Source of the DNA: Escherichia coli
GTDB lineage: Bacteria; Pseudomonadota; Gammaproteobacteria; Enterobacterales; Enterobacteriaceae
Length of the DNA: 64,000 nt
Assembly (NCBI RefSeq): GCF_003790525.1
Contig: NZ_CP033635.1
Reading direction: 5' to 3' (one strand)
Below, piece after piece: positions 8,154 through 11,306 of this stretch. A program made the translations under genes and the position numbers. How positions within the stretch are numbered: the first letter of the stretch is position 1; every line of letters starts with the position of its first letter. The notes beneath the pieces were generated by a model that saw nothing but the letters and a program-made list of their open reading frames with translations, made no database searches and had not been told where the DNA came from.

Positions 8154-10793
8154 ATGCTGGGTAAATATAAAGCCGTTCTCGCGCTGTTATTACTGATTAT
8201 TCTTGTGCCGTTGACGCTGCTGATGACGCTCGGGCTGTGGGTTCCTACGCTGGCGGGCATCTGGCTACCGCTCGGGACACGTATTGCATTAGATGAAAGC
8301 CCACGCATTACGCGTAAAGGTTTAATCATTCCCGATCTCCGTTATCTGGTGGGAGATTGTCAGCTTGCGCATATCACCAACGCCAGCCTTTCACATCCCA
8401 GCCGCTGGTTATTGAACGTCGGCACGGTAGAACTTGATTCTGCTTGTCTGGCGAAATTGCCGCAGACGGAGCAATCGCCAGCCGCTCCAAAAACCCTCGC
8501 GCAGTGGCAGGCCATGTTGCCTAACACCTGGATCAATATCGATAAACTGATTTTTTCTCCCTGGCAGGAATGGCAGGGAAAACTCTCTCTCGCATTAACC
8601 TCCGATATCCAGCAACTGCGTTATCAGGGCGAAAAAGTTAAATTTCAAGGCCAGCTGAAAGGGCAACAACTTACAGTCAGCGAACTGGATGTCGTCGCGT
8701 TTGAAAATCAGCCGCCGGTTAAACTGGTGGGGGAATTTACTATGCCGCTCGTGCCGGATGGACTTCCGGTAAGTGGGCATGCTACTGCGACGTTAAACTT
8801 GCCGCAGGAACCGTCACTGGTGGATGCAGAGCTGGACTGGCAGGAAAATAGCGGGCAATTGATCGTGCTGGCACGGGATAACGGCGATCCGTTGCTCGAT
8901 TTGCCGTGGCAAATTACTCGTCAACAATTGACCGTAAGCGATGGTCGCTGGAGCTGGCCGTATGCAGGTTTTCCTTTGAGTGGCCGACTGGGTGTCAAAG
9001 TCGACAACTGGCAGGCAGGGCTCGAGAACGCTCTGGTCAGCGGACGACTGAGTGTGCTGACCCAGGGGCAAGCGGGTAAGGGCAACGCGGTGCTTAATTT
9101 TGGCCCAGGAAAATTAAGCATGGATAACAGCCAGCTGCCTATGCAACTGACCGGTGAAGCGAAACAGGCGGACCTCATTTTATATGCCCGTTTACCTGCG
9201 CAGCTAAGTGGAAGTCTGTCTGACCCAACGTTGACCTTTGAGCCAGGCGCGTTACTTCGTTCAAAGGGAAGAGTCATTGATTCGCTGGACATCGATGAAA
9301 TCCGCTGGCCTTTAGCGGGTGTAAAAGTCACCCAACGTGGTATTGACGGACGTTTGCAGGCCATTTTGCAGGCGCATGAAAATGAACTGGGCGATTTCGT
9401 GCTGCATATGGATGGACTGGCGAATGATTTTCTCCCTGACGCTGGCCGCTGGCAGTGGCGCTACTGGGGAAAAGGCAGTTTTACACCGATGAATGCCACC
9501 TGGGATGTCGCAGGAAAGGGTGAGTGGCATGACAGCACGATTACGCTGACCGATCTCTCCACCGGTTTCGACCAGTTACAATACGGTACGATGACGGTAG
9601 AAAAGCCGCGACTAATTCTCGACAAGCCCGTCGTCTGGGTACGTGACGCACAGCATCCCTCCTTTAGCGGCGCGCTGTCACTGGACGCCGGGCAAACGCT
9701 GTTCACTGGCGGCAGTGTGTTACCGCCATCGACCTTAAAATTTAGCGTCGATGGACGCGATCCGACGTATTTCCTCTTTAAAGGCGATTTACATGCTGGT
9801 GAGATTGGCCCGGTTCGGGTAAATGGTCGCTGGGACGGTATTCGTCTGCGCGGTAACGCCTGGTGGCCTAAACAATCACTGACCGTATTCCAGCCGCTGG
9901 TGCCACCCGACTGGAAGATGAACTTACGCGATGGCGAACTATATGCCCAGGTCGCATTTTCTGCTGCGCCTGAACAAGGATTCCGCGCGGGAGGGCACGG
10001 CGTGTTGAAAGGCGGTAGTGCCTGGATGCCAGATAATCAGGTTAACGGTGTCGATTTTGTCCTGCCTTTCCGTTTTGCCGATGGAGCCTGGCATCTGGGG
10101 ACTCGCGGCCCCGTTACGTTGCGAATTGCCGAAGTGATTAATCTGGTGACAGCGAAAAATATTACGGCTGATTTGCAAGGGCGTTATCCGTGGAGTGAAG
10201 ACGAACCATTGTTGTTGACCGATGTTAGCGTCGATGTGTTAGGCGGTAACGTGCTGATGAAACAATTACGTATGCCGCAACATGACCCGGCGCTGTTGCG
10301 GCTGAATAATCTTTCCTCCAGCGAACTGGTTAGCGCCGTCAATCCGAAACAATTCGCCATGTCCGGGGCATTTAGTGGTGCATTGCCGTTATGGCTAAAC
10401 AACGAAAAATGGATAGTGAAAGATGGTTGGCTGGCAAATAGCGGGCCAATGACCTTGCGGCTGGATAAAGACACCGCAGATGCGGTGGTGAAAGACAATA
10501 TGACTGCGGGTTCAGCAATTAACTGGTTGCGCTATATGGAAATTAGCCGTTCATCGACAAAAATTAATTTAGATAATCTCGGTTTATTAACCATGCAGGC
10601 CAACATTACAGGTACCAGTCGCGTTGATGGTAAAAGCGGTACGGTAAATCTTAATTACCATCATGAAGAGAATATTTTTACGCTGTGGCGCAGTTTACGC
10701 TTTGGCGATAATCTCCAGGCATGGTTGGAGCAGAACGCACGTCTGCCGGGAAATGACTGTCCGCAAGGAAAAGAGTGTGAGGAAAAACAATGA
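8154..10793 (+). CDS. ydbH: AsmA-family inner-membrane-anchored protein (TamB/YhdP paralogue)
   Basis: 879-aa ORF with N-terminal TM anchor (MLGKYKAVLALLLLIILVPLTLLM); 4-nt ATGA overlap with ynbE. Confidence 0.88.
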   Translation: MLGKYKAVLALLLLIILVPLTLLMTLGLWVPTLAGIWLPLGTRIALDESPRITRKGLIIPDLRYLVGDCQLAHITNASLSHPSRWLLNVGTVELDSACLAKLPQTEQSPAAPKTLAQWQAMLPNTWINIDKLIFSPWQEWQGKLSLALTSDIQQLRYQGEKVKFQGQLKGQQLTVSELDVVAFENQPPVKLVGEFTMPLVPDGLPVSGHATATLNLPQEPSLVDAELDWQENSGQLIVLARDNGDPLLDLPWQITRQQLTVSDGRWSWPYAGFPLSGRLGVKVDNWQAGLENALVSGRLSVLTQGQAGKGNAVLNFGPGKLSMDNSQLPMQLTGEAKQADLILYARLPAQLSGSLSDPTLTFEPGALLRSKGRVIDSLDIDEIRWPLAGVKVTQRGIDGRLQAILQAHENELGDFVLHMDGLANDFLPDAGRWQWRYWGKGSFTPMNATWDVAGKGEWHDSTITLTDLSTGFDQLQYGTMTVEKPRLILDKPVVWVRDAQHPSFSGALSLDAGQTLFTGGSVLPPSTLKFSVDGRDPTYFLFKGDLHAGEIGPVRVNGRWDGIRLRGNAWWPKQSLTVFQPLVPPDWKMNLRDGELYAQVAFSAAPEQGFRAGGHGVLKGGSAWMPDNQVNGVDFVLPFRFADGAWHLGTRGPVTLRIAEVINLVTAKNITADLQGRYPWSEDEPLLLTDVSVDVLGGNVLMKQLRMPQHDPALLRLNNLSSSELVSAVNPKQFAMSGAFSGALPLWLNNEKWIVKDGWLANSGPMTLRLDKDTADAVVKDNMTAGSAINWLRYMEISRSSTKINLDNLGLLTMQANITGTSRVDGKSGTVNLNYHHEENIFTLWRSLRFGDNLQAWLEQNARLPGNDCPQGKECEEKQ

Positions 10794-10975
10794 AAATTTT
10801 ACTGGCTGCGTTGACGTCATCTTTTATGCTGGTTGGCTGTACGCCTCGCATTGAAGTCGCTGCCCCTAAGGAACCGATCACTATCAATATGAACGTTAAA
10901 ATTGAGCATGAGATCATCATCAAGGCAGACAAAGATGTCGAAGAGCTGCTTGAGACCCGTAGCGATCTTTTTTGA
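10790..10975 (+). CDS. ynbE: small lipoprotein YnbE
   Basis: 61-aa ORF with lipobox (MLVGCTP); start overlaps the ydbH stop. Confidence 0.85.
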   Translation: MKILLAALTSSFMLVGCTPRIEVAAPKEPITINMNVKIEHEIIIKADKDVEELLETRSDLF

Positions 10976-10979
10976 GGTG

Positions 10980-11306
10980 ATGATGAAAAGAACATTACTT
11001 CTTTGTGCATTTCTTGTTGGCTTGGTAAGCAGCAATGTAATGGCATTGACTCTGGATGAAGCCAGAACTCAGGGGCGGGTAGGTGAAACATTTTATGGTT
11101 ATCTGGTTGCGCTGAAAACGGATGCTGAAACAGAGAAATTAGTAACCGACATTAATGCCGAACGTAAAGCGAGTTACCAACAACTGGCAAAGCAAAATAA
11201 TGTGTCGGTAGATGATATCGCGAGACTGGCGGGGCAAAAGCTCGTATCTCGCGCTAAATCAGGAGAATATGTGCAGGGCATTAACGGAAAATGGTTACAG
11301 AAATAA
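10980..11306 (+). CDS. ydbL: periplasmic protein YdbL (DUF1318)
   Basis: ORF track 10902..11306; internal start MMKRTLLLCAFLVGLVSSNVMA (signal peptide) gives 108 aa, 4 nt after the ynbE stop. Confidence 0.8.
   Translation: MMKRTLLLCAFLVGLVSSNVMALTLDEARTQGRVGETFYGYLVALKTDAETEKLVTDINAERKASYQQLAKQNNVSVDDIARLAGQKLVSRAKSGEYVQGINGKWLQK

Follow-up and report, generated by a model that had tools for sequence, protein, structure and literature searches.

The window analysed here is a 64,000-nt stretch of Escherichia coli DNA, in which three genes follow one another on the plus strand. The first, ydbH (8154-10793, +), encodes an inner-membrane-anchored AsmA-like protein of 879 residues with a repeating beta-groove, the second, ynbE (10790-10975, +), an outer-membrane lipoprotein of 61 residues, and the third, ydbL (10983-11306, +; alternative ATG at 10980), a periplasmic DUF1318 protein of 107 residues that acts as a chaperone-like modulator of YnbE. 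The three plus-strand open reading frames, the 879-residue YdbH and the ATGA overlap listed in an initial annotation of this DNA were borne out by the ORF listing and the raw sequence. At 100% identity, the stretch matches E. coli SMS-3-5, whose annotation carries the same three gene names; of 5426 complete E. coli genomes, 5417 contain a 3.6-kb stretch covering it. Compared with K-12, YdbH is 99%, YnbE 100% and YdbL 93% identical. Their presence in E. coli genomes, together with the Pfam and NCBIfam matches described below, establishes the three reading frames as genuine genes and not chance ORFs. As at the K-12 locus (b1381-b1383), hslJ and ldhA lie upstream, and both the ATGA overlap and the TGAGGTGATGATG junction are present; downstream of ydbL, K-12 carries feaR-feaB-tynA-paa, whereas in this strain an intact autotransporter gene follows directly. 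The gene order was kept in all 80 Enterobacterales loci, which were gathered from a 7-sequence YdbL alignment reaching across the Enterobacterales only, and also in distant loci with YdbL proteins of 34-46% identity, taken from four separate look-ups of contigs encoding relatives. The locus is thus almost certainly the well-characterised E. coli ydbH-ynbE-ydbL operon, including the bridge and the translational coupling proposed for it.

YdbH matched PF11739 over residues 14-862 of 879 (E=1e-290, 967.8 bits, cut-off 26.3) and the NCBIfam equivalog NF007971 with 1400 bits (cut-off 824). Hydropathy analysis revealed a single hydrophobic segment, located at the N-terminus: all 19-residue windows above 1.6 begin in residues 1-22, with a peak of 2.95 at residues 8-26. 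This segment and the helix of an AlphaFold2 (AF2) model place the codons of the transmembrane anchor at 8160-8258 (+; residues about 3-35), and YdbH is predicted to have this one N-terminal anchor, with the remainder in the periplasm. The model, obtained with 31 orthologues (pLDDT 83.2), starts with a helix (residues 3-35) and continues with about 55 beta strands (residues 42-840) and few helices. In a Foldseek comparison with solved structures, the top match was the bridge-like lipid-transfer protein LPD-3 (9cap_A, E=2e-6), which we read as a likeness in repeating architecture only, because the sequence identity is 6% and the TM-score 0.16. Sequence similarity to other AsmA-like families is negligible; in Pfam, DUF748 alone surfaced (E=0.065), and no significant match to the TamB families was obtained.

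YnbE matched PF13617 (E=3e-16, 59.3 bits, cut-off 25.8) and carries the lipobox LVGC at 10829-10840, with the Cys at residue 17 and Thr at +2, followed by the beta segment PITINMNVKIEHE and a C-terminal helix ending in DLF. Among the orthologues, all 81 retain the lipobox Cys, a T, V or I at +2, the core motif and a C-terminus of the form (D/G)LF. In lipoprotein sorting, a +2 residue other than Asp is compatible with the outer membrane, and the Thr of YnbE fits the predicted sorting to that membrane. As a stand-in for AlphaFold-Multimer, YdbH residues 590-879 were linked to mature YnbE and mature YdbL and modelled with AF2 as one fusion. In the YnbE part, the model placed two strands (residues 20-25 and 30-37) ahead of a helix (41-61), with pLDDT 62-79, to be read as secondary structure only. 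The secondary structure of the fusion was plausible; its output came without coordinates or PAE, so that no contacts are readable from it.

YdbL matched PF07027 (DUF1318; E=1e-30, 106.1 bits, cut-off 27), and its residues 22-107 matched the PDB entry 28oj_A, a 'probable chaperone-like protein YdbL' (E=2e-48). Its N-terminus, MKRTLLLCAFLVGLVSSNVMA followed by LTLDE, has the features predicted for a cleavable signal peptide, and the solved chain 28oj begins at residue 22. A recent preprint reported the YdbL crystal structure and binding of the YnbE C-terminal helix by YdbL (De'Ath 2026, 10.64898/2026.03.16.712125); in an alignment to K-12, the YnbE-contact residues identified there (I79, K86, L87 and R90) are all kept in the allele of this strain. 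The differences from K-12 YdbL are concentrated in the C-terminal third, and the protein here ends in ...KWLQK and lacks the terminal Phe108 of K-12. This Phe has been discussed as contributing to a patch that DegP may recognise; as judged from the alignment, it is unusual within the family, being the C-terminal residue of only 1 of 80 Enterobacterales orthologues.

The function of the system has been addressed by others. Losing ydbH in addition to tamB and yhdP is lethal (Ruiz 2021, PMC8593681), and a YdbH-YnbE bridge was described on the basis of AlphaFold-Multimer, genetics and in vivo cross-linking, in which YnbE is required, cross-links to the C-terminus of YdbH and multimerises (Kumar 2024, PMC11126948). 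The contact between the two proteins was supported by proline mutants in addition to the cross-links (PMC11126948), and YdbH of P. aeruginosa also needs YnbE (PMC12447247). The redundancy with TamB and YhdP was published for K-12, and, as its YdbH is 99% identical to the one encoded here, it would by analogy apply to this strain. The two checks that the initial annotation had proposed, a complex prediction with AlphaFold-Multimer and synthetic-lethality tests with yhdP and tamB, are therefore already in print, with the complex predicted and the lethality found; its AsmA-like intermembrane system was right in substance, yet already published. For the same reason, its remark about poorly understood mechanisms is outdated with regard to the architecture of the complex, but still holds for the biochemistry of lipid transport.

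According to the model that emerges, YdbH would be held in the inner membrane by its one N-terminal helix and extend an elongated, beta-rich groove into the periplasm. YnbE, as a mature outer-membrane lipoprotein of 44 residues, would augment the C-terminal end of this groove with its beta strand, possibly as a short oligomer, and YdbH and YnbE together would form the completed bridge linking the inner to the outer membrane. The current view is that phospholipids travel along this bridge, redundantly with TamB-TamA and YhdP. YdbL, soluble in the periplasm, binds the C-terminal helix of YnbE and would curb its runaway multimerisation, being dispensable itself and harmful in excess. The bridge could also be real and yet serve mainly another purpose than bulk phospholipid transport, such as movement of another lipid species or tethering of the envelope. 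In line with this, there is as yet no reconstituted transport, Kumar et al. 2024 (PMC11126948) note the absence of biochemical support for phospholipid movement, and the predicted complex measures about 180 Å, too short for a periplasm of about 250 Å (PMC11126948). We nevertheless consider such a different main role highly improbable: ydbH acts redundantly with TamB and YhdP both in viability and in outer-membrane lipid homeostasis (PMC8593681), the hydrophobic groove of TamB is reported in a preprint (bioRxiv 10.1101/2025.03.12.642747) to be traversed by lipids, and the best match of the YdbH model among solved structures is a lipid-transfer bridge protein.

With regard to transcription, the ldhA-ydbH intergenic region (7947-8153, +) is the expected place of the operon promoter, and a consensus scan of this region yielded no sigma-70-like site. 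Within 8154-11306, promoter-like matches were at chance level (6 seen versus 5.2 +/- 2.3 expected), and the terminator scan detected no terminator-like site on the plus strand. Separate promoters or terminators between the genes, which the initial annotation had named as evidence against joint expression, were thus not seen above chance in these scans. Eleven nucleotides past the ydbL stop, at 11317-11331 (+), lies a small GC hairpin, CCCGC-TTGTT-GCGGG, with a minimum free energy of -15.8 kcal/mol (z=-1.75) and a poor U tail; it was left uncalled by the terminator scan and is a weak terminator at best. An Rfam scan of 7800-11900 gave no meaningful match. In the proposed mechanism, ydbH, ynbE and ydbL would share one transcript.

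The first junction is an ATGA stop/start overlap of 4 nt at 10790-10793 (+), formed by the ynbE ATG (10790-10792) and the ydbH TGA (10791-10793). The Shine-Dalgarno (SD) sequence of ynbE, GAGGA (10779-10783, +), lies within the ydbH coding sequence, 6 nt 5' of the ATG. Among the 80 Enterobacterales loci, 73 have a stop-start overlap at this position, either ATGA (63) or a 1-nt TAATG overlap (10), and 77 of 80 orthologous loci have an SD-like 4-mer at -18 to -4 of ynbE. Around the junction, the window has the same sequence as K-12, in which translational coupling of ydbH and ynbE was demonstrated experimentally (Huber 2019, PMC6728339), as the initial annotation had assumed. In that study, coupling was strong, proceeded via termination-reinitiation and was strictly SD-dependent, and an upstream stop codon abolished downstream translation of the ydbH/ynbE reporter. 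Most ynbE translation would accordingly come from ribosomes that finish ydbH and, with the help of GAGGA, start again at the ynbE ATG overlapping the ydbH stop.

The second junction is organised differently. The ynbE stop codon TGA (10973-10975, +) is followed by ATGs at 10980 and 10983, i.e. after gaps of 4 nt and 7 nt, and lies itself within the SD of ydbL (TGAGGTGAT, 10973-10981, +), whose anti-SD duplex amounts to -12 to -13 kcal/mol. This placement of the ynbE stop inside the ydbL SD recurs in 75 of the 80 Enterobacterales loci, as TGAGG in 64 and as TAGGA(G) in 11. RefSeq uses the second ATG (10983) as start of ydbL in both SMS-3-5 and K-12; among the 80 loci, about 59 have an ATG at +7 after the ynbE stop and 11 have one at +8, versus only about 25 with one at +4; and the GAGG core leaves a spacing of 5 nt to the ATG at 10983, as against 2 nt to the one at 10980. 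Since annotation, conservation and spacing all favour it, the ATG at 10983 is most likely the conserved start, with a functional gap of 7 nt. The 4-nt gap of the initial annotation is literally present by virtue of the ATG at 10980; that ATG, however, is not conserved.

As the SD of ydbL includes the ynbE stop, translation of ydbL is probably also tied to that of ynbE, a coupling that published work has raised merely as a possibility. It is conceivable, and we put this forward tentatively, that the second junction is a device by which YdbL is made in a constant proportion to YnbE that avoids toxicity, on top of which natural C-terminal variants of YdbL tune its turnover by DegP; a ribosome ending on ynbE would then occupy the ydbL SD or hand it over. 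The motif belonging to such a device is UGAGG or UAGGAG with a start 7-8 nt downstream. We also considered an RNA hairpin hiding the ydbL start, formed in this strain by possible pairing between UCAUCAUCA (10914-10922) and UGAUGAUGA (10978-10986) across both ATGs, and rejected it: the folding z-score was only -1.33, RNAalifold found no consensus structure across 49 orthologous junctions, and the helix could pair in 60% of cells, equal to shuffles, with no covariation.

The tight junctions may, alternatively, reflect compact co-transcription, with ynbE and ydbL initiating independently, and with SD strength and proteolysis, for example of YdbL by DegP, determining the protein ratios. The ribosome-binding site of ydbH is weak (AGGA 11 nt upstream, duplex -4.1 kcal/mol, with a median of -4.1 kcal/mol over 69 orthologues), and the SDs of ynbE and ydbL are better, with a median anti-SD duplex of -6.8 kcal/mol. 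The very strong SD of ydbL in this strain could equally well serve independent initiation, its start is masked by no conserved RNA structure, free YdbL is degraded by DegP in vitro (De'Ath 2026 preprint, 10.64898/2026.03.16.712125), and distant relatives have gaps of 9-32 nt, with no overlap. For ynbE, however, the loss of downstream translation upon introduction of an upstream stop (Huber 2019, PMC6728339) contradicts this reading, and the overlap kept in 73 of 80 loci as well as the ynbE stop placed within the ydbL SD in 75 of 80, which is hard to explain unless termination and initiation are linked, argue against it too. We therefore regard independent initiation as possible but rather unlikely.

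The initial annotation went further and took the junctions to imply stoichiometric co-expression, which can be read as YdbH, YnbE and YdbL in equal amounts in a fixed 1:1:1 structural complex. The three genes do always co-occur in tight linkage, and 1:1:1 models by AlphaFold-Multimer and MultiFold2 put YnbE and YdbL at the C-terminus of YdbH. This claim overreaches nonetheless, as the junctions alone do not imply stoichiometry and reinitiation coupling does not set a 1:1 output. YnbE forms multimers (Kumar 2024, PMC11126948), and YdbL proved difficult to detect, in contrast to the readily detected tagged forms of YdbH and YnbE (De'Ath 2026 preprint, 10.64898/2026.03.16.712125). A tamB ydbL YhdP-depletion strain grows without arabinose (Kumar 2024, PMC11126948), so that YdbL is a dispensable modulator and not an obligate subunit, and it is toxic in excess, an excess of YdbL being lethal in a tamB yhdP mutant (Kumar 2024, PMC11126948). 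What counts, according to both studies (PMC11126948; De'Ath 2026 preprint), is a proper ratio. A fixed 1:1:1 complex is therefore very unlikely, and any fixed stoichiometry would have to be inferred.

Papers from 2019 to 2026 have already described the operon and its ATGA coupling, the complex (by prediction and by cross-linking), the synthetic lethality and the structure of YdbL. Our analysis adds the modest points that both junction designs are conserved in the Enterobacterales, that the start of ydbL is most likely the second ATG and that the terminal Phe of K-12 YdbL is atypical. The YdbH-YnbE system matters as one of three redundant bridges thought to feed phospholipids to the Gram-negative outer membrane, a process that is a possible antibiotic target.

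Of the two other bridges, TamB-TamA likewise combines an inner-membrane-anchored AsmA-like beta-groove protein with an outer-membrane partner and is redundant with YdbH; it differs in that the partner is an Omp85 beta-barrel instead of a 44-residue lipoprotein, that TamB is much longer and that a YdbL-like factor is absent. [quoted passage not shown] The elongated repeating beta-groove architecture is shared with VPS13, ATG2 and BLTP1/LPD-3, and AsmA-like proteins are treated as ancestors of these eukaryotic bridge-like lipid-transfer proteins (PMC11126948), which are, however, several times longer and use other adaptors. For YdbL-YnbE, Kumar et al. (PMC11126948) drew a parallel to CsgC-CsgA of the curli system, where a small periplasmic protein also restrains the beta-strand-driven polymerisation of its partner; CsgC blocks premature amyloid growth, but has no homology to YdbL, which binds the alpha-helix of YnbE and not an amyloid core.

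[quoted passage not shown] The window matched the E. coli SMS-3-5 chromosome at 100% identity. Of 5426 complete E. coli genomes, 5417 contained the 3.6-kb stretch with the three genes, which are annotated there as ydbH, ynbE and ydbL. YdbH matched PF11739 ('Intermembrane phospholipid transport protein YdbH', E=1e-290) and scored 1400 bits against the NCBIfam YdbH equivalog, while YnbE matched PF13617 ('YnbE-like lipoprotein', E=3e-16) and YdbL matched PF07027 (DUF1318, E=1e-30). Identity to the K-12 proteins was 99%, 100% and 93% for YdbH, YnbE and YdbL, respectively.

Conservation of the operon was assessed in 80 orthologous loci from Enterobacterales, one genome per species, in each of which all three genes were placed. 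In all 80, the three lay on a single strand in the order ydbH-ynbE-ydbL. The claimed ATGA overlap of ydbH and ynbE was seen at 10790-10793 and recurred in 63 of these loci, with a one-base TAATG overlap in 10 and small gaps or longer overlaps in the other seven; a Shine-Dalgarno-like motif for ynbE lay inside ydbH in 77/80. The ribosome-binding site of ydbH was weak (median duplex -4.1 kcal/mol), and those of ynbE and ydbL were stronger (median -6.8). A terminator scan gave no terminator-like site on the + strand within 8154-11306, and the six promoter-like matches in the operon region were no excess over shuffles (5.2 +/- 2.3 expected). Around four distant YdbL relatives (34-46% identical) on metagenomic or genomic contigs, the order YdbH-like, YnbE-like, DUF1318 was kept, with gaps of 9-32 nt in place of overlaps; two of these contigs contained an uncalled 60-aa ynbE gene with the motif ...PITINLNVKIEHEI...LF.

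The second junction is most likely less tight than the 4-nt gap first described. In the raw sequence, the ynbE stop is a TGA at 10973-10975, and the GGTGATGATG directly following it thus provides ATGs at both 10980 and 10983. The first of these would give the 4-nt gap, but RefSeq starts ydbL at the second in SMS-3-5 as well as in K-12, leaving 7 nt. We regard 10983 as the conserved start, since an ATG at +7 from the ynbE stop was found in ~59/80 loci and at +8 in a further 11 (Serratia and Rahnella types), compared to only ~25 with an ATG at +4; since the GAGG core of the Shine-Dalgarno sequence precedes 10983 by 5 nt and 10980 by only 2 nt; and since database proteins from other genera (for example Salmonella and Citrobacter) begin with MK(K/R) rather than MMK. 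The ynbE stop codon lay within the Shine-Dalgarno-like motif of ydbL in 75 loci, as TGAGG in 64 and as TAGGA(G) in 11. A candidate 9-bp helix between the ynbE Ile-Ile-Ile codons and the ydbL start region in Escherichia was neither significant (z=-1.33) nor conserved, and an Rfam scan of 7800-11900 gave no meaningful match. In Rahnella bruchi (~5840-6000 of the locus), a 15-nt tandem repeat, reading SIKRS about nine times in the ydbL frame, has expanded the spacer to ~158 nt, so that the tight junction is lost there. Some E. coli-like assemblies (Logan and ENA; proteins P0001 and P0006-P0008) encode a product of 155-173 aa that combines PF13617 with PF07027; here a frameshift close to the 3' end of ynbE fuses the two genes, most likely through an assembly error.

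At the protein level, YdbH had a single, N-terminal hydrophobic segment, and its AlphaFold2 model (31 orthologues, pLDDT 83) consisted of a helix at 3-35, ~55 beta strands, a helix at 841-861 and a disordered tail. We found no solved YdbH structure; the top Foldseek match of the model among solved structures was the bridge-like lipid-transfer protein LPD-3 (9cap_A, E=2e-6, probability 1.0), followed by LptD and ApoB100, with TM-scores of ~0.1-0.2. The YnbE lipobox is LVGC with Thr at +2. In 81/81 orthologues, the lipobox Cys is conserved, the residue at +2 is other than Asp, the PITINMNVKIEHE core is present and the protein ends in (D/G)LF. YdbL carries a signal peptide and matched PDB 28oj_A, 'probable chaperone-like protein YdbL'. 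A linker-fusion model of the YdbH C-terminus, YnbE and YdbL had sensible secondary structure, which is what its output reports, as opposed to contacts.

The operon is thus a real, correctly named and ordinary feature that is already known and fully described in the literature. Deletions of tamB, yhdP and ydbH are synthetically lethal, and a ydbH-ynbE-ydbL plasmid suppresses the tamB yhdP defects (Ruiz, Davis and Kumar 2021, PMC8593681); Kumar, Davis and Ruiz (2024, PMC11126948) demonstrated a YdbH-YnbE bridge with AlphaFold-Multimer, genetics and in vivo photo-cross-linking. Together with the other published work, these studies had already carried out every check that the initial annotation proposed, namely complex prediction by AlphaFold-Multimer (Kumar 2024) and synthetic lethality with yhdP and tamB (Ruiz 2021). 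Kumar 2024 also explicitly raised the ATGA overlap, the Shine-Dalgarno sequence inside ydbH and possible ynbE-ydbL coupling. In reporters, ydbH/ynbE coupling is strong, the Shine-Dalgarno sequence is strictly essential and the region from -99 to +30 is sufficient (Huber et al. 2019, PMC6728339). The coupling part of the suggested stoichiometric co-expression thus holds for ydbH/ynbE, but coupling does not imply equal output. A fixed stoichiometry goes beyond the published data, in which YdbL is dispensable for function, its excess is lethal in a tamB yhdP mutant, and no set number of YnbE copies per bridge is given (PMC11126948). YdbL has been solved at 2.12 A, its interaction with the C-terminal helix of YnbE has been mapped, and DegP has been shown to degrade YdbL unless YnbE protects it (De'Ath et al. 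2026 preprint, 10.64898/2026.03.16.712125). In P. aeruginosa, YdbH (PA5307) likewise needs YnbE (PA5306) (2025, PMC12447247).

Elsewhere in the window, an IS4 transposase gene (ORF 47252-48580; ~47250-48580 in the window) splits ydcO, which RefSeq lists as two partial pseudogene pieces. A full-length type I glyceraldehyde-3-phosphate dehydrogenase gene (333 aa, 33417-34418) adjoins cybB; its K-12 counterpart, gapC, is a pseudogene. Directly downstream of ydbL lies an intact autotransporter gene (1984 aa, 11764-17718), in which a 21-bp unit coding for PDDGGNT is repeated 16.5 times in tandem (12098-12443). Its probable K-12 counterpart is ydbA, an IS-disrupted pseudogene. The strain-specific spacer between the two genes contains an unannotated 16-codon ORF (MSYKIEFLRLLSVQVK, 11392-11453) with a perfect AGGAGG 5 nt upstream, which could be a chance occurrence or a small leader peptide.

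YdbH and YnbE are almost invariant between SMS-3-5 and K-12, and YdbL clusters in Escherichia and Shigella reach down to 71-75% identity to the SMS-3-5 allele. Measured in 150-nt windows, nucleotide identity to K-12 stayed at ~94-100% from hslJ until late in ydbL and fell to 77.5% over the last 80 nt of that gene, at a homology break (11224-11306) extending downstream to 11764. In K-12, ydbL is followed by the feaR-feaB-tynA-paa block, which is absent from SMS-3-5; the ydbL 3' end and downstream sequence of SMS-3-5 are common to only 46/5426 complete E. coli genomes. W104-F108 are among the hydrophobic C-terminal residues that make YdbL a DegP candidate (De'Ath et al. 2026 preprint); this idea may not hold generally. 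YdbL ends in ...GKWLQK in SMS-3-5 (11292-11306), as in most of the family, but in ...GKWVRKF in K-12, and since a terminal Phe of this kind occurred in only 1 of 80 Enterobacterales orthologues, it is the K-12 C-terminus that is atypical.
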